From a virus: a stretch of DNA of 64,000 nt. The stretch lies in IMG/VR virus record IMGVR_UViG_3300045988_117466, positions 68,519 through 132,518 of that record. One strand, written 5' to 3'. The translations under genes and the position numbers were made by a program. Every line of letters starts with the position of its first letter. The stretch's first letter is position 1. Under the pieces are notes generated by a model, which worked only from the letters and a program-made list of their open reading frames with translations, was not told the origin of the DNA and did no database searches. Below are positions 5,242-58,716 of the stretch, in pieces.

Positions 5242-8200
5242 TTATTTACCGATCGTAGGTTTACGACCAATTTTGTGATATTCTTTTAGTTTGTTAGCTT
5301 GCTCTTGATCATAAACCTGTTTTGCAACAACCTTAAGATCATTCAGAACACTCTTATCAACCATGCCTCCAGATTCTACTTTGATCAATGCATCATAATA
5401 AGAAGAGAAGTCTCCAGTACCAGTCATAATATCTTTTGTCTTAGAGGCTTTAACAACTGATTCAGAAATCTTAACAGCTTGTTTTAGCACATCAGATGTT
5501 TCTGGCTTCAGTAAGATTTCGTCTCTACGGACAGTAGCAATACCGTGATCATGATTACTTTGGATTACACCATTAAGTTTAGAAATTGGTATTACATCAT
5601 CAATGACACCACCGTTTCTTACACCTGCATTTTTCAGAGCTTTTAAGATTTTATTTGATTGAGCTTGAGTATATGTTTTCCCCTTAGCTAAATAAAATTC
5701 TTTACCCTTCTTAGAGTTTTTGCTAGTAATTACTCCGAGTTTTCTACCAAGGTCTCCCATTGGGCCTGGATTGTGTACAACATCATAACCCTTACTGGCT
5801 AAATAATTATTTAGAGGAGACCAGCTTTTAAGCTGAGCTTGAGTATAAGGAGTTCCTGTGTGGAATTTTAATCCTAATGACTTAGCTTTCTTTTGAGCAG
5901 GAGAAAGTTGAATTGTAACACTGAAACTTACTACAATTCCATTAGCCGATCTACACGTTGGAGTAATTGTTCCCTCATTGTCGCCTTTTGTGGCTGTAAT
6001 AGTACATGAACTACCAGAGCCTGACATTGTTACATATCCAAGGCTGTTAGGATACCAAGAAAATGATTGTCCAGCTCCATCTGGAGGAACAATATCAGAA
6101 ACAGTAACAGTCTTACTTTCTCCAGGGGCTAAAGTAATAGATGCTGGGCTAACACTGAAAGACATAAGATTATGTGCCTGTTGTTCGGGTGTTTTCATAG
6201 AACCACTAACACCACTAGCATTTCCAGTTTCAACTTTTGAAGAATCAACCTTAGAACCCGTAATACCAGTTGTACCAGTTACATTGGTATCAGGATTTGC
6301 AACATTATTAGTCACAGAGCTGTTCTTGTTCTGAGTATCTTTTGCGTTCTGTTCAGGTGTCTTGCCATTAGCAGAGCTATTGTATTCAGAATGATATAAC
6401 TCACTTAGACCATTAATAAGTCCAGAATTAATAGCAGTGTCATTAATCTTCTTAAAGACATCAGAATAAGAATCTCCAACCTGTTTTAAGAACTTGCTAA
6501 TAAGCTTAGATTGTTCATCCAGAGAACCGCTTAAAGATTTAAGCTGTTTATCCAAAGACTCTTGTAATTTTTCAGTCAGATCATCGTATCCTTGGGATTC
6601 CATAGAATATTGATGTTCTTTCTTAGTGTCATCCATCTGTTCCTGGGCATCAGCAATTTGAGCATCTAATTTAGCTCTTTGTGCTTTTGCAGCTTCTCCT
6701 TCGACACCCTCTAAAGCAGCACGCTGAGCTTCAAGTGCTTGCAAATCTTTTGTCTGACTCTTGATGTTTTTGTCGTAATCGTAGTATTCTTTCTTACGAC
6801 TCAATGCCTCTTTACGTTTATTAATGACTTTGACGAGAGCATCAACTTCAGCTTGCATCGTTGTCTTACCAAGTTCTACAATTTGATTCTTATAGTCATT
6901 GGTATTTGTTGCAGCCTCACGAAGTTGTTTGTTGATTTCAGCTAACTTACTTTCAAAAGTGGCATCGCCAACCATTCGTTTACCATTCTCGTCAAAAGTA
7001 TCATGTAATTTATAGAGAGCATTTCTTTGCTCCATAAGATCAGCCATGTTTTGTTGGCCTTGACGAACATTATCGCTCAAAAGAGCAATTTTAGCTTTAC
7101 CGTCTGTAGTCAACTTACCTGTGTCAGGATCGTTTAAGTAATCCTGATTCAGCATATTCATAAGATCGTTATTCTCATCGATACGAGTATTTCTCTTATC
7201 AATCTTACGACTGCTTTCATCAAGAGGGATCATAATAGCTTCTTGACGTAACTGTTCATTCTTTTCATCTAAAGAATAATTCTCTTCACGCCTTGAATAC
7301 CAATCATCATAAAGCTCTTTGTATCTTTCAGAATCCTTAGCAACCTTATTCATCAGTTCCTGATCAGTTTTCATGATCTCAGCATTGACAGCAGCTCTGT
7401 CATTATTTCTAGCAATCTGATCAGTTTTTGACTGTTTAGTAGCATAGTCGCCATGAGCTTCAGCCATAGAAGCAGTATGTTCTAAAGCAGTAGCAGCATG
7501 TTCAGCTTCATCTGCAAGTCTTGTCAATCTATCAATTTTGATCTGATCAATTTCTTTTCTCACATTTGCAATAGCAGTATCAGTATCAACAATATTATTC
7601 TTAAAAGTTTGAATCTGAGCTTCATATGTATTCTTTTGTTCATCTGTTAAGATTCCCTTTTTCTTAGCCTTATCATACTCTGCCTGATATTTATTCAATT
7701 CTTGTAGCTGAATATTTTTCTGATTCTGATATTGCTGAATCTGATTGTTTAAATTAGCTGTTTTATTATCAAAAGTATCTGTCCCTTGAGCAATATTAAG
7801 ATCATTGATCTTTTGATAGTTCTCTAGGATAGCAGACGTTTTAGATGCCATAGCATCATAATAACTAACAACCTTTTCAAGTTTGGTTTGTACCAGTTCT
7901 TGTTGTTGTTTCCTAAGCTCTTCAACTTGCTGTTTGCATTGTTTAGCTTTATCATACCAGTTCTTATATTCTTCAACAGCGCTACGAATCTTATCATTAC
8001 TAATAGTTTTGATATCAATAGACCCGTTACGTACTTTCTTGAAATAAGATTTTAAAGCTTTTTGGTTCTTAGCTTTTGAAGCTTTTTTTGTTTTAGGAGC
8101 TTTCTTAACTGCTTGTTTCTCAAAGCTTTCATAGAATTTCTTATATTTCTTATAGCCTTGATTATTAGCAGTGATAGAAGAACCAACACTCTTTAAAGCT

Positions 8201-8671
8201 TCATCGTAATCATTAACAGCAGAAGTAAGATCATGAACATTTTCTGCTTTAGCTGTCCAAAGATCAGTAGCAGCAGAAAGATTTTCAATCTTTACTTCAA
8301 TGAAATCAAAAGCTTTACCTATCTTATTAAGATAATTTTCAAGAGCTGATTTCTTAGATTTGGTTTTCTTCTTACCATTCCCAGAACCAGACTTACCAGA
8401 ACCGGTTTTAGATTTACTAGAAGAAGTAGTTTTCTTCTTTTTACCTACAGTAGTTTTACTACCATTAGATTTAATTTTAATTCCAGCAGAGTTAGCATGA
8501 GCAGATCCATGAGCAAATGCTCCTTCACCACCAACAATCTTAGCTCTACTTCCAGTTTTTCCTTTGTTTAGGAGTTCCTTTGTTTGTAGGTGATTAAATA
8601 CTATATCACCACGTTTGAGGTTCACAAATTCTGGGCCTTGAGACCCTACTGTAAACCATCTATTACCACGT
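5242..8671 (-). CDS. tail tape measure protein, exon 3 (about 1143 codons)
   Basis: The reading frame is open upstream of the ORF-track start back to 8670 (RGNRWFTVGSQGPEFVNLKRGDIVFNHLQT). No SD or ATG at its 5' end. Coiled-coil rich, with an Ig-like (Big_2-type) segment near the C-terminus. Joined to exon 2 by the intron at 8672-11024. Confidence 0.75.
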
Positions 8672-8862
8672 CAATTATGTTTTCATCGGTTCGCAACACC
8701 GACAAGAGTTTTCACTCCTCATGCTTTCACATGAGTTCAGACTATATCTTTTACCTGATTTTATTGTATGTATGTTTTGTTTGTTTTTTATTTGTGGGTA
8801 TTAAAAAAGAGCAGAAGTAAAATTACTTTTGCTCTTCGGTAGAGGTTAAATTAATTTGTTTA

Positions 8863-9750
8863 TTATGCTCCTATACTTCGCCATTTGCCTTTTGACCATT
8901 TGCAAATTTCTTCATCATCTATACAAAGGACATATTTTTTATTCCCGATTTTACAATTACAATGAATCTCTTCATCTCGGATATCCCACCATGTTAAAGA
9001 TCCTTTGATTTTAAAATTTACCTTAGTCCATGTGCCAGGTTTGAGATCGATGTATTTTTTATTCCCTGTTAGTTTTAAGTTTCTGTCATATTTTTTGTAA
9101 TCACAATCTAAAGAATAAGCACCTTTAGAATAAATACGAATTTTTTTATTACTTGCGTTAAAAAGCTTTGTTTTAAAAATATTTGATCGAGTATCGTATT
9201 TATGCAACCAGCCGTTCATATGAATGCTTTTATATGGTTTTACAATTACGGAAATTGTTTTTTTAAAAGTTGTTGTTTTGTCCCAGGCGTTTTTAATTAT
9301 ATGATTGTTTAAGTCATCATCATAGTTCCCATTTTCTCCATAGCGATAATCATCATATACAGCAAAATGGTCTTCATAACAATCAACACTTAATGTTATT
9401 TTGGATTTACCAAATTTCTTTGCATCAACATATGTATATAAATCTTCAACTCCAATTCCTTCATAAGAGTCTAAGGATATATTTTTATTAGATCTTGACC
9501 ATGAAATTGAATTAACATCCAAAGTGTATCCACCCTCTTCATCACCATAGTGCTTCCATAGCGTAGCATCATTTTTCATAAATTCCCCATTATAGTATAG
9601 CTTAGGAGTAATTTTTTTCATCTGTCCATAATACATTGTAATAGTTTTAGGGACAGAGATACTGAAACCTGCTTGAGCGCTTTTGGTGTTAATAATCCAT
9701 AAAAAACTAAACACTAATATAAAGGACATTAATTTTAAAAATTTTTTCAC
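8863..9750 (-). CDS. secreted protein (Sec signal peptide), intron cargo
   Basis: GTG at 9750 after AAGGAGGAGGG. N-terminus KKFLKLMSFILVFSFLWIINTKSAQA|G. Lies between the intron R and S elements. Confidence 0.6.
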   Translation of the reverse strand: MKKFLKLMSFILVFSFLWIINTKSAQAGFSISVPKTITMYYGQMKKITPKLYYNGEFMKNDATLWKHYGDEEGGYTLDVNSISWSRSNKNISLDSYEGIGVEDLYTYVDAKKFGKSKITLSVDCYEDHFAVYDDYRYGENGNYDDDLNNHIIKNAWDKTTTFKKTISVIVKPYKSIHMNGWLHKYDTRSNIFKTKLFNASNKKIRIYSKGAYSLDCDYKKYDRNLKLTGNKKYIDLKPGTWTKVNFKIKGSLTWWDIRDEEIHCNCKIGNKKYVLCIDDEEICKWSKGKWRSIGA

Positions 9751-9766
9751 AATAGCACCCTCCTCC

Positions 9767-10636
9767 TTAAAATTCCTTTGTAATCGGTTTTGTGAATGGT
9801 GTTTCACTTTCATAATAAGTATATTGCCCAGGGGATACCTTATCAGAATTTCCATAAGAAACTATTTCCATTTTGACAATCTTGTCCTTTGTTTCAAAAC
9901 TGCTTTCTTCCCACATAGATTGATATGCTTTTAAATTATAGTAGTATAGAGATTGATCGCTTACTACGGTTCCATTTTTATCATAAAAACGAATATCAAT
10001 ATTGGCCATATCATAATCATAGTCTGTTAGATTTTTGATTTTTATTCTATATGTCCGATATCCGTATGTAGATGCTTTGACTTCAATTTTTTCAATTTTA
10101 TACGTGTCATCTATAAGCGTGGCTCCTTTCGGACAATATCCATTCTCTTTTATAAGTTCGTCATATGATTTCTTATCCCCTTTGGTTGTAAAAGAAAGAT
10201 GTGTCTGATCAACTAACTTTTTTAGAATTTCCGCACGCTGGCTATTGTATACATAATAATTGTATTGTATCTTAGTCGGAGCACTGGTGTAATCATCAAA
10301 TAAATCATTTTGTGTATTTAAGGTTTTAATATATTCAGAAATTAAATTTTGTGTATTCTTGTTTTCGAATTGGATTTTAGTTTCTGAATATTTGTTTAGT
10401 GGTTTTAATTCAGTAGCGATATACTTTTGCATCATAGCTGCGTAGTCAGATTGAGATTGATTACTATCATCGGTCTTATCACTAATCTCCCATCTTTTTT
10501 CGAGCCCAGTTTTTAAATCATTTGCTACTTGTTTGTCTGTGATTTTGGCTTCTTTTTGAGGAGCATCTTTCCCACAAGCACAAAATAAACATAAACTTGT
10601 AAGAAGCATACATCCAATTAAAATTTTCTTTTTCAT
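9767..10636 (-). CDS. putative lipoprotein, intron cargo
   Basis: ATG at 10636 after GGAGGG. N-terminus MKKKILIGCMLLTSLCLFCAC|GKD (signal peptide with a lipobox-like Cys). Lies inside the intron. Confidence 0.6.
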   Translation of the reverse strand: MKKKILIGCMLLTSLCLFCACGKDAPQKEAKITDKQVANDLKTGLEKRWEISDKTDDSNQSQSDYAAMMQKYIATELKPLNKYSETKIQFENKNTQNLISEYIKTLNTQNDLFDDYTSAPTKIQYNYYVYNSQRAEILKKLVDQTHLSFTTKGDKKSYDELIKENGYCPKGATLIDDTYKIEKIEVKASTYGYRTYRIKIKNLTDYDYDMANIDIRFYDKNGTVVSDQSLYYYNLKAYQSMWEESSFETKDKIVKMEIVSYGNSDKVSPGQYTYYESETPFTKPITKEF

Positions 10637-33390: not shown

Positions 33391-33588
33391 CTAGAATGTC
33401 ATTTTATTTGTGAAAACCATCTTCATACGGTCATCCAGCGAAAATTCCATATCTACGGCTTCCAATTTATTTTCAAAAATATAAACCGTATGATCTTTAC
33501 ATTTTTCAACTTTTAACAGCTTACATTTTTGTTCTAATTTTTCTTTTAGTTGCTCATCTATACAAAAGATGAATGGTTTATTCTCCAT
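33391..33588 (-). CDS. hypothetical protein, 65 aa
   Basis: ATG at 33588 after GAGAGGAGAA. Overlaps the portal stop by 11 nt and is followed by a terminator hairpin (AGACC..GGTCT plus U-run). Confidence 0.45.
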   Translation of the reverse strand: MENKPFIFCIDEQLKEKLEQKCKLLKVEKCKDHTVYIFENKLEAVDMEFSLDDRMKMVFTNKMTF

Positions 33589-35125
33589 TTTTATTCTCCT
33601 CTCTGGTTGCAATACCTTCCTCAGTCATATCATCAAGATTCTTTTCTTCAGCACCGCCTTTAGAGTCAGTTGTACCTGTATTAGATGTATAAGAAGAGTT
33701 AAGAGGCTTCCATAATTCATCTAATCCCAGTGCATTTTCCAAACCAGTATTCTGCATAACTTCATAAGGCGTATAACCCAAAGAAGTAGCAAGTTCCATT
33801 TTTACTGGAACACCTAAGGCAGCAGCATCTTTTCTCACGTTGATATAATCTTCTTGTGTGAAATATGTATATCTGTGGAACTTGATAATATAATTTTCAT
33901 CAATATTGTTTTTGATGTACATCTGAGCCCATCTCTCAATCTTAACTAAGAAATCTATGGCTACAGTTTCATCAACTTCTATAGAATGTTTCAATCCAAC
34001 AGATCCACCTTTGTCAGAATTGAATAACATTTCAGATACACCAACTTTGCTCATTAAATTAGATAAAGAATTAGCAAAGATATCGGTGTCAGACGTGTCA
34101 TTTGTTTTAAAAGGAACGACTTCAAGATCACATGGGCTGTAAGCAGTTGCAACCAAAGAAGGAACAGCTTCACTTAAAAGTCCATCCATAGCTTGTACAA
34201 GATCTAAATCAACAGCAAAATCATTGATTTCTTTTGTACCAGATAATAATGGGATTTTTTGAAGTAATAAGACACTTGCTTCCAACTCTGTCTTAGCTTT
34301 GATTAAATTTTCATAGTCTAAAAGATCAATCAAAGACACAAAGAGTGGAAGTAGATATGGAAGCGGAAGAAGTGGATCGTTTCCAGAAATGATACAAATA
34401 GAGGTTTCCATAGGAATTTGAAACCATTTGTAATCCTGACCATTACTTTTGTAAGCATTGTAGCCAGTGCTAAATATAGAATCCCACTCTTCAAGATAAA
34501 TACTATTATTTCCCTGATCAAAGAAGCTTGCATCAAAGTCAAATCCATAAACACCATTGTCTACCTGAGTAACTTTGCAGTATTTAGCTTCTAACTGGTA
34601 TAAAAAGCATTCATCATCTCCATTGTCATAAACAAATCCAAAATAAGCACCATCTCTAAGTGCTGCTGCAATAACACCGGGCATATCGGCTTTAAAATTA
34701 ATTCGTTGAACACCTTTCACAGCTTCTGTATAAGAAGTAATGAAATCAGTCTGTCCACTACTCAATAGGTCCTCTTTGGGGACTAGCTGATAGTTATATA
34801 ACAACATAGAAGAGTAGTATTCGATCAGTTTCCGATATGGCATACTTACTCTGTATAACCATTCAGAAACAGCTCTGATATTGTTAATGTTCGATTGTGG
34901 ATTCTGAATATATTGTTGTAGTTTTGCTTTTGTGTAACGAGTATAACTACGACTCGTTTCTTTATTAGCTTTTTGTAAAATTAAACTATTGACCTGGCTT
35001 TGACTGAAAGTAGAAGCAAAAGGTCTTGAATAATTTCCTGATTGCATTTGTGTAACTTTACGTTTTATGGGTTGATTCTTACGCACGGGTTTCCCAGTAT
35101 TTTGTTTTTTCGCCACATTATCCAA
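33578..35125 (-). CDS. portal protein
   Basis: 515-aa ORF immediately downstream of terL exon 2 (SD AGGAGGTGAAAG). Size and position typical of SPP1-type portals. Confidence 0.7.
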   Translation of the reverse strand: MDNVAKKQNTGKPVRKNQPIKRKVTQMQSGNYSRPFASTFSQSQVNSLILQKANKETSRSYTRYTKAKLQQYIQNPQSNINNIRAVSEWLYRVSMPYRKLIEYYSSMLLYNYQLVPKEDLLSSGQTDFITSYTEAVKGVQRINFKADMPGVIAAALRDGAYFGFVYDNGDDECFLYQLEAKYCKVTQVDNGVYGFDFDASFFDQGNNSIYLEEWDSIFSTGYNAYKSNGQDYKWFQIPMETSICIISGNDPLLPLPYLLPLFVSLIDLLDYENLIKAKTELEASVLLLQKIPLLSGTKEINDFAVDLDLVQAMDGLLSEAVPSLVATAYSPCDLEVVPFKTNDTSDTDIFANSLSNLMSKVGVSEMLFNSDKGGSVGLKHSIEVDETVAIDFLVKIERWAQMYIKNNIDENYIIKFHRYTYFTQEDYINVRKDAAALGVPVKMELATSLGYTPYEVMQNTGLENALGLDELWKPLNSSYTSNTGTTDSKGGAEEKNLDDMTEEGIATREENKNGE

Positions 35126-35272: not shown

Positions 35273-36518
35273 CATCGTTCTGTTACTTTTTTTGACCTGT
35301 ATATCAAACACTATATTTCCAAATAAAACCTCCTGATGTTTTACAATGACCAGAACAGCAATATTGAATATTTTCTTTTTTAATTCCAGTTTGCTTTTCA
35401 GCAATAAGGGCAGATTCGAACTGACGTAAGAAATCACCTTTTTTTGAATATTGCAAAACACTTTTCCGTTTTATTGAAGTGGTTTTAGAATGTTTAAAAT
35501 CAGTCAACAGATCTTCTTGATGATCGGAGACTGAGTATTTGTCTACATATCTAAAAATAAATCCTTTACAAGTTTTTCTTTTTTTGTTACATACGGAAGA
35601 AATTTGTCCACCAGTAGCATTAATGCTTTCCCCCGCTTCTGTGGCACTTTTATATATACCAAGTAGATTAAAATCTAAATCATATTTGACGACCATTTTT
35701 GGCATTTGAGATACTTTGAGATAAGAAAAGTCAAAATCAGGTGAGTTATAATCATTTTCATATACCCAAAAAAACCCACCAATAGTTTTTTGATAATTTT
35801 GGCGTTCACAACATGATCGTATCCCTCGAATGTACAATCCTAAAGTTTTACCAGCATGTGAACAGCTATCCCATTTATGTACTATTTGTAAATCTTTATC
35901 TAATTGCAATACAGATTTGGGATTTTGAATATGTCGCATTTTAAATATCTCATTTTCTGAATGCTCGTACCCAACGATCCCTTTGCCTCCAATACATTGA
36001 TTGTAAACATGATTTTTTGAGCTAAAAAATTTAATCCATTTTTGCTCTCTGTCATCAAGTGTTGCTACATCACAAGTTTCAACAGATTTAAACTCAAAAT
36101 TATCTTCACCATATTTATTCCAGTCTCTTTGAAGTAGACAATTATGATGGCGGTTATTGTTTAAATCTGACTTATGGTGACGCCATCTTTTGTTTAATTG
36201 GGAGGTTTGTCCAATATAATAAGTGTCATTAATTTTATTTTTTATGTAGTATATATTTCCATTCATTTTCCATTTACTTCTTGGTATCTATACAGGCGAA
36301 TAAGACGTTAATCTTATTTCTCATATTTCATTTGTTATAGTATGAGTCCAGACTATCGCATCTCCATATAATTGCCGATGGAGTTCTTTCACTTAGTCGT
36401 TGCAGCTGCACGGTTTTCCTGCTTGCTGTGGGTTATCCTCTACAGGACTTTCCCAAATTGATCAGAAAGAATTGAAAATACAGTTTATGGATTATGCTGT
36501 ATTTGCCCTATGCGATTA
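35273..36518 (-). mobile_element. group I intron in terL (1246 nt) carrying a GIY-YIG endonuclease
   Basis: Minus-strand P AATTTGGGAAAGTCC, R GCAACGACTAAG (36392-36403), S GCGATAGTCTGG (36348-36359). U at 36519 precedes the 5' splice site and G at 35273 is the last intron base. A 7-nt block TAATCGC is shared by the intron start and the exon-2 start. Confidence 0.85.
35304..36266 (-). CDS. GIY-YIG homing endonuclease with three intron-encoded-nuclease (IENR/NUMOD-like) repeats
   Basis: N-terminus IYYIKNKINDTYYIGQT...R...H...N...G..NFEF...E..WI (GIY-YIG). C-terminal repeats ...GGFFWVYE / KGFIFRYV / GGFIWKYS. Confidence 0.85.
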   Translation of the reverse strand: MNGNIYYIKNKINDTYYIGQTSQLNKRWRHHKSDLNNNRHHNCLLQRDWNKYGEDNFEFKSVETCDVATLDDREQKWIKFFSSKNHVYNQCIGGKGIVGYEHSENEIFKMRHIQNPKSVLQLDKDLQIVHKWDSCSHAGKTLGLYIRGIRSCCERQNYQKTIGGFFWVYENDYNSPDFDFSYLKVSQMPKMVVKYDLDFNLLGIYKSATEAGESINATGGQISSVCNKKRKTCKGFIFRYVDKYSVSDHQEDLLTDFKHSKTTSIKRKSVLQYSKKGDFLRQFESALIAEKQTGIKKENIQYCCSGHCKTSGGFIWKYSV

Positions 36519-38370
36519 AGGCTCTATCGTCATGCATTTTATTAGCTTTCTGGGGATCAAGATCAAATCTGTCCTTGCCAGAAGCCTGTTTGAATCGATA
36601 AATATTAACCAATTCAGTTTTTGCGTGATCAATTTGTTTCAAAGCAATCTCTTCATAAGTGGTTAACTTGTGAATTTGAGTATCAACAGTGATTTCTTTT
36701 TTGCTTAATATTTTTTCCTCGTCCTCGGATGGGAAATAATCACGCAGAGTACGATTACCATTTTTATCAATCTCATAAATTAAGTTGATGAATCCCTTTC
36801 CGTCATACTCATTCGGAAATTCAATCAGACCTAAATCCATCATTTGAATCAAAGATTCAAACATTTCAGACTTATATTTCAATGGGGACATCAGTTTTAC
36901 GATGTCTGGGATAGCATTAGGGAAGTTTCTAGCTTCCTCGGCAGAATATTCCTTATCAATCAATCCTCGATGCATTAATCCGTCTGAATCTTCCCAATCC
37001 TCCAGAAAGAAGTCAGTAATAGGTACGCCAGCTCCACCAGAACCTGCATCAACTAAAAATCTCTTGATATTTTGGTAATCAGCAACGCCATCACCGTTAT
37101 AATCTAATAGTAATTGTTTGATTGCTTTAATCTGATTTGGGGTATTCATAGGAGTTTTATTAGCTTTGAAATAATCTTGAAGACATACAAGATTGACAAT
37201 TTTCATTTTTAATCCCTGTGTAGGATCTTCATAAAGTTCTCCTATGGCAAGAGCAGAATTATCGTGTGATCTAGCAGGGTCATATGCAAAAACATACTTT
37301 CTGCGACCATCTGGATTCTTAAGAACTGGAATTCTGTTGTAAGAGTTCTTAATGATCCTTGCTCTTTTAATGATCTGACCATCTCCACCTTCATTTGTGA
37401 AGATGTTATAATATTCACGCAATGCGGCTTCCTTATCTGTTCGCATAGCACTGTCTACAGTACTTTGACTTAACAGAGGTTTAGGTAGTCCAATGCCTCT
37501 TTTTGTTGCTTTAATAATGACATCACAGCTAATATCAGCACAAAAATAGTTTTTATCTCCTGCATCCATTCGTAGGCTACATTCTCTGTACTTTTTATAA
37601 AAATACTGGTCAGTACGACCTGCAGAAGAGCAGTAGAGTAACTGATTTTCGAACATAGGTGGTTTCATAAGCATTTCAGAACCATCTCCATTTGTTCCTA
37701 ATGCAAAATCAGCGTTCTGAGTTGTAAATGGTTCAGAAGTATCAAATAATTCATCTGGACTGTTCATTGCTTCATCATATACATTGCAATTGCTACGCTT
37801 GGAGCGGTTGTTGTTATATGCACCGTTCAAAGTAAAAATCTGTGCATCATTGTACAATTGATGATGATATGAAGCAGGATTGTGAACAAATCCATCTTTA
37901 TTTGCATGAGATTTAATAATTTCACTTGCATAAACACTTGTAAGTGTTGTAAATGAAGGAACTTCATTCTTTGTGATCTTTTCAAGCTTTGAATACATTT
38001 CAATAGACTGTGATCCAACACCGCATAGAATATAAGCGGTGAAGTTTGGTACTAACAGCGATTTAGTCATCAAATAGATAGATGCCAATGCACTTTTACC
38101 ACCATTTCGACTCATAGCCCATACTGCAACCTTAGAAGTCCAAGTATTCATGAATATATAGGTCTGATAGTCCATTAATTCAACACCGAATATCTCTGAT
38201 GCGAATCTGGTAGGATTCCTTCGGCCCCATTGAATGAACTCAGCAGTCTCTTTGTATTGCTCATACTGACGATTTGTAATGTCATATAGACTAGGTTTTT
38301 TGAAGATTTGATAATTCTTTGGGAGATATACACCAGATTCGTGTAATTCGTATTTCTTACTTTCTCTCAA
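36519..38370 (-). CDS. terL: terminase large subunit, exon 1
   Basis: Walker A-like AMSRNGGKSALAS. Typical TerL length. C-terminal ...KMHDDRA then intron. Overlaps the upstream gene by 4 nt. Confidence 0.85.
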
Positions 38371-41174: not shown

Positions 41175-41184
41175 TTGGACATAG

Positions 41185-41257
<73 letters not shown>

Positions 41258-41258
41258 A

Positions 41259-41294
41259 CAAAAAGAGTACATTGTAACTACCAACAATGTACTC
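41259..41294 (-). terminator. hairpin plus U-run immediately 5' of tRNA-Thr
   Basis: 10-bp stem GAGUACAUUG/CAAUGUACUC followed by UUUUU on the minus strand. Could be a terminator or an RNA-processing hairpin. Confidence 0.45.
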
Positions 41295-41441
41295 AAATTT
41301 AGAAAAGAGGTATAAATTATGATTCCTACAAGAAATCTTAATAGCTTTGTAAATCTTTCTGAGGTATGAAACAACAATAGAAAAGCGCAATAATCAAAAC
41401 TTCACAAGAAAGGAGATAATATGATTCCTCAGAAAGATTAA

Positions 41442-41513
41442 CAGGGATAACTGGATTTGAACCAGTGAATACAGCAGTCAAAGTGCTGTGCCTTACCGCT
41501 TGGCGATATCCCT
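41442..41513 (-). tRNA. tRNA-Gln: tRNA-Gln (anticodon UUG)
   Basis: Acceptor AGGGAUA/UAUCCCU, anticodon stem CAGCA/UGCUG with loop CUUUGAC, T-arm ACUGG-UUCAAAU-CCAGU; 72 nt. Confidence 0.85.
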
Positions 41514-42126
41514 ATATGTATTTTAATTTTAAAGCAGGTCTTCACCTTACAGTCATTTGTGGAATAGTTTGTTCTGCAACATAGTAGATAAGTCTGAGCT
41601 TTGAGGAGCGACCTCTAACTTCTTACCTAAGTCTAAAAGACCAGTTCTATGACATGATCAATACATGCAATGTCAACCCGCCATTCAGAATTAAGTTTTA
41701 TTGTTATATACTCTATTAGCATATATATTCATTTTGAATTTGAACTTACCCTTAACTGACTTGAGCGACATACCAGCGACTTTTCTTATACACTGTCTTT
41801 TGAACAGCTTCACATCAAACTACATTATTTGGCTTTTCCACCTTTTACGTACCTGCCAGAGTACGCATTGAAGTGGATTATTCTCCACAGGAGCGTCTAT
41901 TGTTGTAGCGAAAAGTTCTGTGCGTTAACCAGACCAAAATGCTGCACAATATCCATTTGCTTGAGAGTTTCTCTCTTGTCCATATCAAATCACTCCGACA
42001 TAAAAAGAGACACAAAGAACGTATCCGTACAATGTATCTCTCCAATTCGACATATGTGCCTAGAATATTTCTCGGACTCATGGCATTGAGTTTTATAACC
42101 GAGTTGCTTATGTTTTAAAATACAAA

Positions 42127-42198
42127 CACCCTAAGCTGGATTTGAACCAGCACGAACGGTTTTGGAGACCGTCATTCTACCAACTAAATTATTAGGGC
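42127..42198 (-). tRNA. tRNA-Trp: tRNA-Trp (anticodon CCA)
   Basis: Acceptor GCCCUAA/UUAGGGU, anticodon stem ACGGU/ACCGU with loop CUCCAAA, T-arm GCUGG-UUCAAAU-CCAGC. Confidence 0.85.
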
Positions 42199-42205
42199 GA
42201 TATTA

Positions 42206-42279
42206 CTGACATGACAGGACTCGAACCTGCAACACCAACGTCCGTAGCGTTGTGCTCTGTCCAGTTGAGCTACATGTCA
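42206..42279 (-). tRNA. tRNA-Arg: tRNA-Arg (anticodon ACG)
   Basis: Acceptor UGACAUG/CAUGUCA, D-arm GCUC-AACUGGACA-GAGC, anticodon loop CUACGGA, T-loop UUCGAGU. Confidence 0.85.
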
Positions 42280-42322
42280 TTAAAATTCGACCTCAATCCA
42301 CATAGGATTTTGAGGTACTTTC

Positions 42323-42408
42323 GTCCCTGTTGAGGGAATCGAACCCACTCGTGACCGAAGCCATCTGATTTACAGTCAGATCCGCCTCCTTAGCGGGATA
42401 AACAGGGA
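42323..42408 (-). tRNA. tRNA-Tyr: tRNA-Tyr (anticodon GUA), class II
   Basis: Acceptor UCCCUGU/ACAGGGA, anticodon loop CUGUAAA, long variable arm, T-loop UUCGAUU; 86 nt. Confidence 0.8.
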
Positions 42409-42450
42409 TATAAGCCCGTGAGCTCGAAAGACATCACAGGACAACCTAAA

Positions 42451-42536
42451 CGCTGCGACAAGGATTCGAACCTTGAGGTCACTAGGACACAATAGTTTTC
42501 AAGACTACGCCGTTATAACCATTTCGGTACCGCAGC
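42451..42536 (-). tRNA. tRNA-Ser: tRNA-Ser (anticodon UGA), class II
   Basis: Acceptor GCUGCGG/UCGCAGC, anticodon loop CUUGAAA, long variable arm, T-loop UUCGAAU; 86 nt. Confidence 0.8.
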
Positions 42537-42541
42537 AAAAG

Positions 42542-42633
42542 CGTACAGAGTGGGCTACGACCCCACGTTACATGTATTCGCATGTAAACCCAATTAGCAG
42601 TCGGGCGCCTTAAACCAACTCAGCCATCTGTAC
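42542..42633 (-). tRNA. tRNA-Ser: tRNA-Ser (anticodon GCU), class II
   Basis: Acceptor GUACAGA/UCUGUAC, anticodon stem CCCGA/UUGGG with loop CUGCUAA, long variable arm, atypical T-loop GUCGUAG; 92 nt. Confidence 0.7.
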
Positions 42634-43823: not shown

Positions 43824-44678
43824 TTATTTTTTGTCAGAATTATAGTATTTAGTATATCTATTTAACTGCATTTCATTCTTACAAGAAATACAATACTGTC
43901 TAAGCCGTCCTTTACGATGCTTTTTCTTTTTTGAGATGTCTCTAAAAGGTTCTCCACAACAAGAGCATACAGAAATCTCAGGATATCCAATAAAGTGAAG
44001 ATATCTGTTCCCAAGATTCTTGAAGTCTGTAATTTCAAGAGCGACATCTCCTGAATCAGCAAGAATATCTACAGAGAAGTTTAAGCTATTAACTTTCTTG
44101 CTCATTGTTATACAATCGCTTCTGAACAGTCTGCCGATTATTTGGCATCTACGTTCTCTTGTACCTACTGTATTACCCAATGAGAATAAATCTTTGTAGT
44201 CTGTATTCACCCAGCTGTTATTTTGAGGATTCAGAGCATTATAATACTTGGCCAAACAAAGAGCAGTGAAGAGGATCTTTTGATCTCTAAGATTCTCTAA
44301 CCCATTTATAGTTTCCATTTCAGATTCATAGATCGGCAGTGAATCAATTTCTACAAGAGGATACTTTTTAGCTTTATGAATTATCTCATCAATGCATGAA
44401 TACCATTTGGCTTCTCTGTAGCTCTCACAGGACTCTTTTAAGAACTCATTGATAGTTTTATATACCTCTGCAGGTTCTAAGCCTTCCTCGTGGATATAAT
44501 ACTTTGCAAGCAGGGTAGCAGTATATGGGATACTGCCTTCCAGCTCTTTTGTTTCTAAAATTTTTTCTACCAGTTTTTTTTCATTTAGTACGATATTAAT
44601 AACAATCAGCCTCCTCAAACATAGATGATTCAATTTGTTTAATAGTTTCAATGACGAAAGAATCTCCGTCATATTCAA
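43824..44678 (-). CDS. hypothetical protein with C-terminal zinc ribbon
   Basis: C-terminus CSCCGEPF...CISCKNE. The ORF-track start overlaps the RNA polymerase 3' end by 83 nt, so the true start is probably internal. Confidence 0.45.
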   Translation of the reverse strand: MNMTEILSSLKLLNKLNHLCLRRLIVINIVLNEKKLVEKILETKELEGSIPYTATLLAKYYIHEEGLEPAEVYKTINEFLKESCESYREAKWYSCIDEIIHKAKKYPLVEIDSLPIYESEMETINGLENLRDQKILFTALCLAKYYNALNPQNNSWVNTDYKDLFSLGNTVGTRERRCQIIGRLFRSDCITMSKKVNSLNFSVDILADSGDVALEITDFKNLGNRYLHFIGYPEISVCSCCGEPFRDISKKKKHRKGRLRQYCISCKNEMQLNRYTKYYNSDKK

Positions 44679-45738
44679 AATCTCCTGATTCAGCTCTTAC
44701 AGGATAAGAGATCTGGTGATAGTTTCTCTCTAAGAGTCTTTGGACAAGAATGTCTCCAAACATGTCCCATACAAACTGCTTACTCTTACCATTGGTGTAG
44801 CAGAGATCAAGAAGAATGTCACAAGCTTTCTCAGGATCAGGAACAGCAGTAGCAACAGCTTCTCTGAACAACATGACTCGATTATTGATAATGTCTGTTA
44901 CATTTAGACCAAAACCACCCTTACCGTTGATCAGAGCATTTAAGGTTTTCATTTTCTTTGAATATTCACTGTACAGCTTCTTAAGAGCATAATAATCATT
45001 CTTGTTGTACTCATGATCTCTTTTGAGAATGGAGTAATCAAAATCTGTTTGTGTGTTCAACTTCTTTAAGTATCCATCAAACTCATCCTCAAAGAGCTTA
45101 CAGATTCGATTCATTACACAAGGCCCTGTACCTACAGGCAAGAACTTATAGTAGTGGTCTAAGAATTCCGCTTCATCCTCTGTGATAGGTTCTGTATCAG
45201 CTTTCTTGAGCAATTCATCAATCGTACACCCAAACCAGATGATGCATTTGTCATTTGAAGCTTTCACATAATTTGTATAATCCTTTCTCAGATGAGAGTA
45301 GATGTAGATCATGAAGTATGGCTTCTTGTCAGCTACGATTCTCTGGTTGAATTCTTTCCGCTTACGATCCTTTGGTGAGTCTTCAGGATGGATGTTATTT
45401 TCCTTGCGATTGTACCAGTAAGATGGTATTGGTTTACACACGATGCCTTTTAGACGATCAATACTTCCTTGTTGATATAGCTGACCACAAATGATTCTGT
45501 AATCTAGTTCTTTAAACTCATCACTGTCAGGGGAGTAATGAGACTGTACTTCAAACTGAGAAGTGATGATGTTTGTTGTGAAGCCAATTTCGTCTCCAAA
45601 GGCATCCTTGTAAGCTTTTAGGATGTCTTTCTTTTTGGGAACAATCTTATTAGCCTTACGCTGCACACAAATGATTGATGGAAGAGGACGATTGTTCTCA
45701 ACAAGTATTCTGTTGTTAGTTGTGAAGAAGAGGTCTCC
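44596..45738 (-). CDS. single-subunit two-barrel RNA polymerase (YonO/RdRP-like), exon 2 (380 aa)
   Basis: The frame is open 72 nt upstream of the ORF-track GTG and begins GDLFFTTNNRILVENN..., with no SD or ATG. It supplies the GD of the DFDGD motif. Confidence 0.65.
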   Translation of the reverse strand, partial: GDLFFTTNNRILVENNRPLPSIICVQRKANKIVPKKKDILKAYKDAFGDEIGFTTNIITSQFEVQSHYSPDSDEFKELDYRIICGQLYQQGSIDRLKGIVCKPIPSYWYNRKENNIHPEDSPKDRKRKEFNQRIVADKKPYFMIYIYSHLRKDYTNYVKASNDKCIIWFGCTIDELLKKADTEPITEDEAEFLDHYYKFLPVGTGPCVMNRICKLFEDEFDGYLKKLNTQTDFDYSILKRDHEYNKNDYYALKKLYSEYSKKMKTLNALINGKGGFGLNVTDIINNRVMLFREAVATAVPDPEKACDILLDLCYTNGKSKQFVWDMFGDILVQRLLERNYHQISYPVRAESGDFEYDGDSFVIETIKQIESSMFEEADCY

Positions 45739-46081
45739 CGATGTACCCTCGGTTTCCCGATATTTATGGAGAAAGGGGACTAGACTATATCATTACACAG
45801 CATAGGTCTTACACTGTGATGCTCGGCACTTCCCTTGGGGAGTTTCACCCTTTTGGTACTCTACTTGCTACCGATACCGTATTCCTCGAATATCAGTGCT
45901 TTGGTTAGTCGTTTAACTTTCAATTTCTTGCTTAGCACAGGATTACCACCGACTCTACTCGCTGAGGCTTCCCTGTTAGCACATGTGTTAACTTCCATTT
46001 CCTGAAGCTACTGTATGTCACATGTACACCTTACATTTGTAAGTTCACCGAGTTTTACTTCGACAAATGGTATGCTCAGAT
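45739..46081 (-). mobile_element. ORF-less group I intron (343 nt) in the RNA polymerase gene
   Basis: Minus-strand R GTTAAACGACTAACC (45903-45917), S ATGATATAGTCTAG (45780-45793), Q-like AATCCTGTGC, P-like CTAACAGGGAAGCC. U at 46082 precedes the 5' splice site and G at 45739 is the last intron base. Confidence 0.8.
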
Positions 46082-47731
46082 ATCGAAGTCGCAGCCGTTA
46101 AGTGATTCACATGTATTGTCCCAATTGTTGATCACACAAATGGATGGGAGATACTGGAACCAATATGAAAGCTGCTCATTGTTCTTCACTTTAAGATTGA
46201 CGATATTGTAATGGCTTGTCATTGGAGCTCTGAAACAAGCTACTTCATCAACCTGTCTATCAACCCAATGCTTGTGATACATTTCTCCTGCTTTAAGTAA
46301 TCCTGTGACTTCAAGCCCAAACATAGACTGCATGAGAGCATATGGATCACCAGCAACGATTGAATAATTACCTTTCACTTTGATGCGTCCAATCTTAGCA
46401 TCTTGGATTCGTTTCTTAATGAGCGAATGAATCTTAGATCGAATGAAAGGATCTTTGATCATCTCAGGTTCAGCTATGAGTGCCTGGATGTATGTAAAAG
46501 CATCTGACTGTAAGATGTTCTTCTCAGTCATATTCTTACCTCGTAGGAAGAGCAGAGTCTTTCTGTAATCCATTCCAAGAATGTCTTTGATCTCTTTTAT
46601 GGTTGGCTCACAAAGCTCTCTTATTTGGGCGTCTGTGAGGTGATAGCTCTGTAAGAACTGATAGTTAAGATTTCTTTCAGTATCACATTCTTGTTCAGCT
46701 GTCTTGGCAAGAGCAAAGTGATAATCATACTTCTCAATGTTCTCTAAGTAGTCTTCCATGGAATCATATGCGTCCCAGAGTTTAAACATAGATGTTGTAA
46801 GTATCACCTGAGCGTCTCTAACGTCCCTAGGATGGCCCCAAGCATCAATAATGGTATAAGTGTTGGCTACGTTCTCTGCAAAGGCTCTAAAGTCCATACA
46901 GTGAAGCATACCTTTACAGAATGGCCAACCTCTCATGTTGCCAGATGGAAGAGGAGTATCATAATCTCCATTCAGTTCACCATTCCATTGCTTTGCAAGT
47001 TCTGGAAGAACTAATCCTTCTCCATCAGATCCATTGTGCACAAACTCTTGGTTATCAAGAAGAGTTACTTCTGGTTCATCTGAGTTTGTATCATCCACAT
47101 AAAGAGCTTGTCCCTTAAAGACCGTCTCACAATCTTGTACAACAATCACTCCTGATGGTGGAGTAACAACTGTAGAAGAAGAGCAGAAGAGTGCTTTGTA
47201 TGCTCCAAGCTTGTGAGTTATGATCGGAACCTCTTTGTTCCTTCCTGCATCTACTTTCTCACAGAGAGTATCGTACACGTTGTCACTGACAAAGATTACA
47301 ACACTGTTCTTTAATCCTCCTGTAGTTCCTAAGAAGAGATTGTAGTGAAGATCGTTTACAATGAATCCATGCTTGCTACAGTAGTCATAATCTTTCTTTG
47401 TGTCGAAGACCACTGTGAGGTAGTCTGTTTGGAATCGACATTTGTACAAGTCATTGTAGAGTAGTGAGATAAGTTCTTTGCTTCCTCTGTTGGCTGAAAG
47501 CTCTTTGATCTTCTTTCGGATTCTTTTTGCTCTTATGTCTGAATCATAGTCATGGATTAATGAGTCGATTGTTCTTAATGCTTCAGAGCTTGAAAGAGTA
47601 ATAATGTCATCTCCATTCTCCCTCGCTTCATTGAGTGGTAGAGAAAGTTTCCACTTCGCCTTTCTTAACCGGCTGCTGTGTAGTTTGTAAATATATTTCT
47701 GACTCGTCTTTTGCTTAGAAATAATGATCAC
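46082..47731 (-). CDS. single-subunit two-barrel RNA polymerase (YonO/RdRP-like), exon 1 (550 aa)
   Basis: Probable GTG start at 47731 after AAAAAGGAG. Ends ...EVACFRAPMTSHYNIVNLKV...VINNWDNTCESLNGCDFD|, resembling the R-x-P...G-x-D-x-D-G-D region of YonO / cellular RdRPs / beta-prime NADFDGD. Confidence 0.65.
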
Positions 47732-47936
47732 TCCTTTTTTGATTTTTGTGTATGTTTTTACAGTAAATTGGAAAAATATGGAAAGCGAGTATATTTTCAT
47801 ATAAATACTCATTGTTACTACGTAACAACAAGTATTTTATAAAAATAGGATAATTAAATATTATATAATACTTAATTTTAGTAATGTATTAATAGTTTCA
47901 GACTTATCTTGAAACAAATGTCGATTTTATGCGGGT

Positions 47937-57606: not shown

Positions 57607-58716
57607 ATGTTAAAAGCCTATAAATATAGATTATATCCAAACAGACAACAAATAAAACAAATTCAAAAAACTTTTGGGTGTTGTAGATTTGTATATAATC
57701 AAACTCTCGCATATAGGAAAGCAATGTATGAAACGAAAAAAGAATCTATGAATAAAACTTCTTGTAACAACTATGTTAATCAAGTTCTAAAAAAAAAATA
57801 CGAATGGTTAAAGGAAGTGGATAAATTTGCTCTTACGAATGCAATTTATGATATGGATTTCGCATATCAGAAATTTTTCAAAGAGCATACAGGTTTTCCA
57901 AAGTTCAAATCTAAACGAGATAATAAAAAGTCATATTCTACTAATTTTACAAACAACAATATCGGAGTATCGTTTGAGAATAATAGGATTAAACTTCCGA
58001 AACTTAAATGGATTAAAGCAAAGATTCATAGAGAATTTATAGGGAAGATAAAATCCGCAACAATTTCACAAGTACCGTCTGGCAAATATTTTGTATCAAT
58101 TCTTGTAGAAACAGAGCATATTCCAATGGAGTCTACCGGTTGTATGATTGGTATTGACTTAGGTGTTAAAGATTTACTTATCACTTCCGATGGAGCAAAA
58201 TTTGATAATATTCGCACCACTAAAAAATATGAAGATAAACTAGCAAAAGAACAAAGAAAATTGTCTCATAAAGTAAAAGGTAGTATGAATTGGAATAAAC
58301 AGAGAATAAAAGTAGCAAGAATACATGAAAAGATTCACAATACCAGAATTGATAACTTACATAAAATTTCTCATAAACTTGTCAGCGAAAACCAAGTGAT
58401 AGTTTCTGAGGACTTATCTGTAAGTAATATGGTGAAGAATCGTAATCTTGCGAAGGCGATTTTAGATTGTGGATGGTATGAATTAACAAGACAGATAAGT
58501 TATAAGTCTGATTGGAATAATCGTCAGTATATCAAGATTGGAAGATTTACAAAATCAAGCCAACCTTGTAATATATGTGGTTACATTAATAAAAACACAA
58601 AAGATTTATCTGTTAGAGAATGGATATGTCCTCAATGTGGAACTATCCATGATAGAGATATCAATGCTGCAATTAATATTCTTAATGAAGGATTGAGATT
58701 ATTAGATGTAGTATAA
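57607..58716 (+). CDS. tnpB: TnpB (IS200/IS605-family OrfB, RuvC-type RNA-guided nuclease)
   Basis: N-terminal YKYRLYPN..Q...I...FG.CRFVYN. RuvC residues intact (IGIDLG, VSEDL, DRDINAAINI). Zinc finger CNICG...CPQCG. No tnpA anywhere in the window. Confidence 0.9.
   Translation: MLKAYKYRLYPNRQQIKQIQKTFGCCRFVYNQTLAYRKAMYETKKESMNKTSCNNYVNQVLKKKYEWLKEVDKFALTNAIYDMDFAYQKFFKEHTGFPKFKSKRDNKKSYSTNFTNNNIGVSFENNRIKLPKLKWIKAKIHREFIGKIKSATISQVPSGKYFVSILVETEHIPMESTGCMIGIDLGVKDLLITSDGAKFDNIRTTKKYEDKLAKEQRKLSHKVKGSMNWNKQRIKVARIHEKIHNTRIDNLHKISHKLVSENQVIVSEDLSVSNMVKNRNLAKAILDCGWYELTRQISYKSDWNNRQYIKIGRFTKSSQPCNICGYINKNTKDLSVREWICPQCGTIHDRDINAAINILNEGLRLLDVV

Follow-up and report, generated by a model that had tools for sequence, protein, structure and literature searches.

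A YonO-like polymerase gene of an uncultured tailed phage with a predicted group I intron between the codons of its catalytic aspartates

On the minus strand of a phage genome known from metagenomic sequence, an open reading frame (ORF) breaks off within the codons of a polymerase metal-binding loop, and a second frame takes up the remainder of this loop 343 nucleotides (nt) further downstream. This raises the question of whether the two frames belong to one gene, what kind of sequence separates them, and which enzyme they encode. The DNA is the stretch from 68,519 to 132,518 of IMG/VR virus record IMGVR_UViG_3300045988_117466; these 64,000 nt, the whole of the DNA analysed, are called the window, and all positions are those of the window. 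In an uncultured tailed phage, this locus very probably forms one gene that codes for a YonO-like two-barrel polymerase and is split at D-F-D/G-D by a group I intron that carries no ORF. The evidence consists of the sequence anatomy, homology, the predicted fold, a presence/absence polymorphism of the intron, and covariation.

For the polymerase gene (47731-44596, minus strand), translation identified an interruption, the gap from 46081 to 45739. The upstream ORF, 46076-47812, has the terminus ...CESLNGCDFD, which is followed by ATC TGA (Ile and stop). At 45738 the frame resumes with GGA GAC CTC (GDLFFTTNNRILVENN) and runs to the stop codon at 44596. The final T of GAT is base 46082, and at 45739 there is a G. 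The ORF ends, the length of the gap, the reopening of the frame, the U before the 5' splice site and the terminal G had been named, with their coordinates, in an original prediction made from the sequence alone, and each of them was verified on the minus strand. When 46082 is joined to 45738, the sequence ...GACTTCGAT runs in frame into GGAGACCTC..., and a protein of 930 amino acids (aa) from GTG 47731, or of 957 aa from the upstream ATG 47812, is obtained. The position of the GTG is the start of the orthologs P0001, P0002 and P0007, while the in-frame ATG is not used by orthologs; residues are given in P0001 numbering, to which 27 has to be added for the 957-aa numbering. The G-C-D-F-D-G-D motif exists only after this joining, in agreement with the 930-aa spliced product proposed earlier. 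The same proposal held that the unspliced product lacks two of the three catalytic Asp residues, which has to be corrected: since this product ends with ...DFD-I, it keeps two of them, and it is the third Asp, together with the C-terminal 380 residues, that is missing.

The spliced protein was identified as a homologue of SPbeta YonO by BLASTP, with an E value of 3.7e-28 for residues 149-636 and 27.7% identity over 506 columns, and by tblastn against SPBc2 yonO (E 2e-18). The Pfam RdRP (RNA-dependent RNA polymerase) family PF05183 matches 28 of 54 close homologs (those at 44-59% identity), with a best E value of 4.3e-17. In PHROGs, three families of unknown function were matched, one by exon 1 alone, one by exon 2 alone and one over the full length; the exon-1 family is phrog_25339 (558 aa, E 1.2e-174) and the exon-2 family is phrog_35857 (354 aa, E 1e-62). 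Over the DFDGD region, a weak PHROGs match described as 'RNA-dependent RNA polymerase' was also obtained.

Eight residues have been described as invariant in all two-barrel polymerases, which in QDE-1 numbering are D709, R738, K743, R962, P964, D1007, D1009 and D1011 (Ruprich-Robert and Thuriaux, PMC2919709). All eight are present in the window protein, as D236, R267, K273, R501, P503, D548, D550 and D552. The three Asp residues D548, D550 and D552 are invariant in the 54 homologs and align with D-N-D-G-D of YonO. R501 and P503, the equivalents of QDE-1 R962/P964 and Rpb1 R446/P448, are likewise invariant and align with LRSP of YonO; they form part of F-R-A-P, which lies 47 residues before the first Asp, compared to about 45 residues for the R-x-P motif as defined for these polymerases. 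The first-barrel motif ...SDGEG...MRGWPFCKG... aligns with TDGCG...VRLPWVKG of YonO. Here, D236 is kept in at least 90% of the 54 homologs, and R267 and K273 are invariant; the three residues are spaced by 31 and 6 positions, compared to 29 and 5 in QDE-1, an assignment made by alignment and spacing and not by three-dimensional superposition.

For the fold, an AlphaFold model was obtained of P0001, the 97%-identical ortholog, with a predicted local distance difference test score (pLDDT) of 89.7 and a predicted template modelling score (pTM) of 0.85. A Foldseek search of this model against the PDB gave maize RDR2 (7w82, E 1.4e-17) and QDE-1 (2j7n, E 5.9e-16), both with a probability of 1.00 and template modelling (TM) scores of 0.44-0.50, and the alignments to RDR2 and QDE-1 cover nearly the full length of the model. 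Arabidopsis RDR2, Thermus phage P74 gp62 (E 2e-6) and, weakly, beta' subunits were also found, and phage entries named 'RNA-dependent RNA polymerase' in BFVD were matched at E 3e-41 and 7e-34. QDE-1 and RDR2 were reached through structure comparison only. Sequence and model together support the assignment of the spliced protein as a two-barrel polymerase of the YonO/RdRP type. This was the central claim of the original prediction, and it was borne out by the YonO match, the eight residues and the fold, including the structural comparison that had been proposed as a check.

The anatomy could be right and the enzyme could still use RNA templates, or have another role in nucleotidyl transfer, like its eukaryotic RdRP relatives. 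The best structural matches are indeed RNA-dependent enzymes, the matching Pfam family is named RdRP, and the identity to YonO is only about 28%. However, YonO, the only characterised phage member, is a processive DNA-dependent RNA polymerase (RNAP) with an Asp triad essential for catalysis (PMC5467207), and was shown to transcribe the SPbeta late gene cluster (PMC8270828). The window gene, like yonO, heads a same-strand block of structural genes, and QDE-1 itself uses DNA templates too (entries 7y7r, 7y7s). An RNA-templated or otherwise different activity is regarded as unlikely, and by analogy to YonO the window enzyme would synthesise RNA on DNA templates. Downstream of the polymerase gene and on the same strand, genes for an exonuclease, terminase, portal and tape-measure protein were identified. 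A role in late transcription is reasonable because the gene heads this block and because of the analogy to YonO, and the enzyme probably transcribes the downstream late and structural genes (terminase, portal, tail). A scan for promoters and terminators around the polymerase gene revealed no enrichment over shuffled sequences; promoter recognition by YonO has been described as a still open question (PMC5467207).

The exon junction was examined on an uninterrupted ortholog. A database search with the spliced protein identified P0001, which has 930 aa and is 97% identical. Its sequence at the junction, ...CESLNGADHDGDLFFTTSNK..., contains no extra residue and lacks none. The contig coding for P0001 (L011, Logan ERR12256861) was compared to the window by blastn and is 96-98% identical outside a diverged tract around the junction. 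The blastn alignment ends at 46103 and restarts at 45738. The diverged exon 1 bases 46102-46082 (21 nt) map one-for-one onto L011 7630-7650 in a colinear codon alignment, so that exactly the 343 nt are absent from L011, where the site reads ...GGCGCCGATCACGATGGCGACCTT.... The PMBT24 gene is likewise intron-less at the DxD/GD site. In comparison to the intron-less allele, the ratio of nonsynonymous to synonymous substitution rates (dN/dS) is 0.08 and 0.06 for the two exons, both of which are intact over the 930 codons. Among four intron-bearing lineages, synonymous sites are saturated at dN values of 0.13-0.27 (0.16-0.27 for exon 2), and the frame of exon 2 is intact over about 380 codons where the contig reaches the end of the gene.

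These data bear on the possibility that two separate polypeptides are made without splicing, the exon-1 product ending ...DFD-I and a protein starting at GTG 45666, which would assemble in trans. Public annotations do keep the halves apart, as CST179 and CST178 of phage c-st or as phrog_25339 and phrog_35857, and split RNAP subunits (beta') occur in jumbo phages. However, exon 2 has no start codon at the junction, its first in-frame GTG being 45666, and its conservation begins exactly at the junction, 24 codons before this first possible start, and includes Gly-Asp of the metal loop; a product starting at 45666 would be devoid of the third catalytic Asp. At 97% identity there are intact single-chain orthologs, and the spacer shows group I structure and covariation, as described below. 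Assembly in trans is therefore considered highly improbable. Without joining of the exons, it is difficult to account for purifying selection on an exon 2 that has no start codon of its own, and this lends indirect support to splicing.

For the gap, the features expected of a group I intron were identified (Table 1). P1 has 8 base pairs (bp), of which the one at the 5' splice site is U-G, and is also found in the minimum free energy (MFE) fold of the single sequence, which in addition recovers P2, P2.1, P4, P5, P7.1 and P8. The group I elements R and S of the original prediction are both present and hold the two strands of P7. The intron has a GC content of 43%, compared to 35% for the window. 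A search of 601 nt with the Rfam group I model RF00028 gave a match spanning 46051-45760 end to end, with 26.8 bits and an E value of 8.7e-5.

Covariation was analysed in an alignment of the four closest related introns, on a hand-drawn layout of P2, P2.1, P2.1a, P3, P4, P5/5a, P7, P7.1, P8 and P9; the structure was drawn from these same sequences. All 53 pairs in the 10 helices are 100% paired (all 210 cells), and 20 of the 53 pairs show compensatory changes on both sides, a number reached by none of 500 shuffles, while slid controls gave 1-4. Covariation is seen in the peripheral helices, and the core does not vary, which matches expectation. The P9 hairpin with its GAAA tetraloop is retained with other sequences in relatives, CAUG/CAUG in c-st and UUGG/CCAG in CB473P3, and in P1 of c-st the exon GGAU pairs with a guide GUCC, which is a compensatory change. 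In drawing the layout, the P3 assignment of Rfam was found to contain non-canonical pairs and was replaced by GCU/AGC flanking P7. A long-range pairing of a 5' CUCGGU with a 3' ACCGAG proposed by RNAalifold was rejected in favour of the local P9 hairpin, because MT835481 does not retain this pairing, and c-st and CB473P3 show covariation in the hairpin. Taken on its sequence, the gap is supported as a group I intron that separates the codon of the second Asp from that of Gly in DFDGD, and self-splicing is predicted for it.

Several results count against this interpretation of enzyme and intron. At E up to 1, Pfam gave no match for the window spliced protein or for P0001, and phmmer and profile searches of PDB sequences gave no relevant match. 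The RF00028 score of 26.8 bits does not reach the gathering score of 50, so that the Rfam check proposed in the original prediction gave the local match but one below this threshold, and whole-window Rfam scans did not report the intron either at gathering or at E up to 1. The covariation sample comprises only four related sequences, in which P3, P4, P7 and P9 are invariant and uninformative. P3 as drawn has 3 bp only, no convincing P10 pairing was found in the intron, and the folding z-score is only -1.8. For the RF00028 score, the model appears to have low sensitivity for this type of intron, and the score is not taken as counter-evidence, because a sister intron in the metagenomic contig L013 reached only 37.8 bits and the annotated AR9 intron was missed altogether. 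That the gap is a decayed, non-splicing remnant in a pseudogene, as the lost endonuclease ORF and the sub-threshold Rfam score might suggest, is scarcely credible, since both exons are intact with dN/dS values of 0.08 and 0.06, the helices are fully paired with compensatory changes across ORF-less and ORF-bearing copies, P1, the terminal G and P7 are all intact, and ORF-less group I introns commonly stay splicing-competent.

With a group I intron that splices, the following course would be expected. The primary transcript would fold so that the last eight exon bases, ACUUCGAU, form P1 with the guide GUCGAAGU and a U-G wobble comes to lie at the splice site. Bound in P7, an external guanosine would attack after U46082, the terminal G45739 would next take the guanosine site in P7, and the exons would be ligated. 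Only the ligated mRNA would then encode the 930-aa enzyme with its full Asp triad and the 380-residue C-terminal part, and ribosomes on unspliced RNA would halt two codons into the intron.

At the same site, independent introns were identified in seven sequences, namely the window, c-st, Enterocloster phage CB473P3, fecal contig MT835481 and the metagenomic contigs L012, L013 and L014. In all seven, the exon before the intron ends with GAU, the following exon begins with GGNGAY, and the final intron base is G. The L012 intron corresponds to the window intron (89-90% identity) with a 573-nt insert between nt 151 and 162 of the latter. In L012 and L014, Pfam identified an ORF for an HNH_3 homing endonuclease (171 or 157 aa) inside the P6 loop, and L015, grouped with L014, carries such an ORF as well; the MT835481 intron contains a homologous ORF of 195 aa. 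These HNH_3 proteins are homologous to AR9 g271 (E 1e-13 to 1e-18). No endonuclease ORF is found in the ORF list of the window intron, in which the longest ORF has 45 aa and is not conserved. As an ORF-less derivative, the window intron would depend on help in trans for any mobility it may still have. It is, or descends from, a homing element, judged by the HNH ORFs of its same-site relatives, its absence from a near-identical phage, and flanking exons that have the look of co-conversion.

The flanking divergence covers about 330 nt of exon and is asymmetric, extending into the 3' exon. Between the window and L011, the identity is 96-100% outside this tract and 57-90% (mean 83%) inside, and the metal loop reads ADHDGD in L011 and CDFDGD in the window. 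This looks like a co-conversion tract from gain or loss of the intron by recombination with a diverged allele. The contigs L012-L014 were considered as donors of the tract and rejected, since their identity to the window exceeds that to L011 by no more than 1-2 percentage points.

Among the 150 best representatives at 50% identity (of 1,850 in the family), 13 (about 9%) end at query residues 548-553 and 9 end at about 640-650, counts that refer to protein lengths only. By residue offset, the latter ends correspond to the second intron of CB473P1 and CB473P3. This second intron site in the polymerase gene was observed in Enterocloster phages CB473P3 and CB473P1 (L003 and L004; L004 2027-3151) at PMBT24 residues 594/595, by residue offset at about P0001 residues 643-645, in a conserved QQNxID...KG motif about 94 codons downstream of the first site. 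The second-site intron of CB473P1 carries an ORF of 250 aa.

Immediately downstream of the polymerase gene, a conserved ORF was identified which overlaps the polymerase stop codon; in c-st (CST177), PMBT24 and BUCT082, a homolog occupies the position after the polymerase gene. At its C-terminus, the window ORF has a CxxC...CxxC zinc ribbon similar to the C-terminal residues 777-820 of YonO (E 0.016; for the BUCT082 homolog, E 4e-5); Pfam gave weak zinc-ribbon hints only. A model of the protein (pLDDT 79) gave no Foldseek match below E 0.2, with winged-helix hints to Fur and ORC only. Since the frame offset is not the same in all homologs, a conserved frameshift fusion of the ORF with the polymerase was rejected. 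The ORF probably codes for a separate protein that is translationally coupled to the polymerase, and it may be an accessory subunit or a promoter factor. The label 'single-subunit' for the window polymerase is not certain, because this conserved overlapping ORF carries a YonO-like zinc ribbon.

Two further and mutually independent readings can be formulated, both rather doubtful, with a low to moderate probability. In the first, the DxDGD codons are a shared homing target, and one lineage of intron and HNH endonuclease colonised both YonO-like genes (in the window, c-st, Enterocloster phages and about 9% of the family representatives) and the beta' gene g270 of AR9. It would mean that a mobile intron jumped between polymerase families that diverged earlier than the last universal common ancestor. 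In the second, the product of the partner ORF is obligatory, as a subunit or as a promoter-specificity factor, and the YonO-type enzymes of the window clade would be two-component.

Table 1. Positions of the features of the polymerase locus in the window
Feature	Position	Strand	Description
Exon 1	46082..47731	-	550 codons from GTG 47731; ends ...NGCDFD; from ORF list and translation
First-barrel residues	46913..47026	-	Asp GAT 47026-47024, Arg AGA 46933-46931, Lys AAA 46915-46913
R-A-P codons AGA GCT CCA	46223..46231	-	Asp-triad barrel, invariant Arg and Pro; the first Asp follows 47 residues later
Asp-Phe-Asp codons GAC TTC GAT	46082..46090	-	First two catalytic Asp, at the end of exon 1; align with YonO D-N-D and QDE-1-type D-x-D
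Predicted group I intron	45739..46081	-	343 nt, no ORF; RF00028 26.8 bits; absent from L011; core like annotated phage introns
P1, 5'-exon strand ACUUCGAU	46082..46089	-	Ends with U46082, which forms the U-G wobble at the 5' splice site
In-frame TGA	46076..46078	-	Two codons past the 5' splice site; unspliced translation would halt after ...DFD-I
P1, intron strand, internal guide sequence GUCGAAGU	46057..46064	-	Complementary to ACUUCGAU
P6 region, minimal tip GCUAAGCAAGAAAUUGAAAGU	45916..45936	-	Site of a long P6a stem and the HNH_3 ORF in L012 and L014
Element R GUUAAACGACUAACC (located as GTTAAACGACTAACC)	45903..45917	-	Holds P7 5' strand GACUA, 45910-45906
Element S AUGAUAUAGUCUAG (located as ATGATATAGTCTAG)	45780..45793	-	Holds P7 3' strand UAGUC, 45787-45783
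P9 hairpin and 3' tail	45739..45760	-	GAAA tetraloop, UCGG-GAAA-CCGA (45760-45749); tail to terminal G45739
Gly-Asp codons GGA GAC	45733..45738	-	Third catalytic Asp; first two codons of exon 2
Exon 2	44596..45738	-	380 codons and stop; begins GDLFFTTNN; from ORF list and translation
Flanking-exon divergence tract	45439..46111	-	Includes the intron; from the insertion site, about 30 nt in the 5' and about 300 nt in the 3' direction
Conserved partner ORF	43824..44620	-	About 255-270 aa; start about 44620; overlaps polymerase stop codon; phrog_30716, E 1.8e-17

In the remainder of the window, several other elements were observed. Just downstream of the polymerase operon, a full-length ROOL RNA (RF03087, 303.7 bits) is present at 41516-42127 on the minus strand, embedded among seven tRNA genes (Thr, Gln, Trp, Arg, Tyr, Ser and Ser; 41184-42633, minus strand). 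A free-standing homing-endonuclease ORF (35304-36266, minus strand), for which PHROGs gave a GIY-YIG match to the N-terminal part and an HNH match to the C-terminal part, is flanked by the genes for the terminase large subunit (36508-38370) and the portal protein (33578-35125). At 8718-8817 on the minus strand, a scan of 701 nt gave a weak partial match to RF00028 (20.8 bits, E 0.006) with AAGAUAUAGUCUG and a hairpin; it sits in a 237-nt gap between ORFs 8863-9855 and 5242-8625 in the region of the tail genes, and may represent a second group I intron, as its 3' part or as a remnant. A transposase of the insertion sequence type (57607-58716, phrog_506, E 1e-131) is encoded in the plus-strand arm of the phage genome. 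A megablast search with 22 kb against 50,697 phage records gave tRNA matches only, which indicates that the phage is not a described isolate.

In the literature searched, no report of an intron in a YonO-like gene was found. YonO-like genes of c-st were already known (PMC7824862), group I introns have long been known to occupy active-site codons in essential genes of phages (review PMC12908238), and introns have been documented in multisubunit RNAP genes of jumbo phages. The locus is a clear new example of a known habit of phage introns rather than a new kind of system, and it will not surprise a specialist. For annotation, it matters that the YonO-like genes of Clostridia phages have repeatedly been filed as two unrelated proteins, as for CST179 and CST178 of c-st, the two PHROG families and 'RdRP' entries of 563 aa. 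Comparative studies have cited the exon-1-truncated product as the enzyme (PMC7824862), and recognition of the intron would yield the true catalytic chain of 900-930 aa. For intron biology, the locus provides a textbook mobile intron in the most constrained codons of an essential enzyme. It also offers a ready natural system for the study of homing and endonuclease loss in gut phages, because it combines a presence/absence polymorphism at 97% identity, a tract resembling co-conversion, and both ORF-bearing and ORF-less versions. For transcription, the sparsely studied YonO family gains a member with a good model (pLDDT about 90) as well as a candidate partner protein.

In comparison to known systems, the cellular enzymes QDE-1 and RDR2 (PF05183) are the best structural matches, almost over the full length and with a TM score of about 0.46, and they share DxDGD, R-x-P and the first-barrel D...R...K with the window protein. 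They differ in being silencing enzymes with 11-14% sequence identity, and PDB chains gave no match at the profile level. SPbeta YonO is homologous over about 490 residues and shares all eight active-site residues in unchanged order, and its gene likewise lies upstream of a same-strand late and structural block. However, yonO is uninterrupted and codes for D-N-D-G-D in one chain of 839 aa that ends in a CxxC zinc ribbon, whereas in the window a polymerase of 930 aa is followed by a separate overlapping ORF with a similar ribbon.

For the intron, the counterparts are the HNH group I introns of Firmicute phages, as in the SPO1/Herelleviridae DNA polymerase, Twort-like terminase and AR9 RNAP genes, which share the ribozyme core and, like the window intron, are inserted in active-site codons of an essential gene. 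In blastn searches, 161 phage records were matched by the intron region, the similarity lying in the P7-P3'-P7.1 core (80-86% identity over 55-80 nt), and the matches inspected sit inside annotated or evident introns in AR9 beta', Bacillus Herelleviridae DNA polymerase and Twort-like terminase genes. In AR9, the gene g270 for the N-terminal beta' subunit of the non-virion RNAP also has its intron within the codons of G-D-Y-D-G-D. Here, the host gene codes for a multisubunit beta' and not for a YonO-like single chain, the window intron lacks the endonuclease ORF, and the AR9 insertion apparently lies up to 3 nt further downstream, around the Gly codon. In the AR9 locus (L008, KU878088.1 223155-228220; locus 1830-2830), exon 1 ends with ...SGDYDG and intact homologs align through the next D; U at -1 and a P1 of 6 bp favour a junction after GGU, but the last intron base would then be A. 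A special relationship between the AR9 and window introns could not be established, because the core is common to many Firmicute phage introns (the 161 records).

The closest counterparts of the whole locus are CST179/CST178 of c-st and the genes of Enterocloster CB473P3 and PMBT24, which belong to the same subfamily (37-38% identical) and have the same downstream partner ORF. The intron sequences of c-st and CB473P3 have diverged from that of the window except in the core, and in contrast to the single gene proposed here, the halves of the c-st gene are annotated in GenBank as 'YonO-homolog N-ter only' and a hypothetical protein. In both c-st and CB473P3, the intron is located at exactly the same DxD/GD position as in the window.

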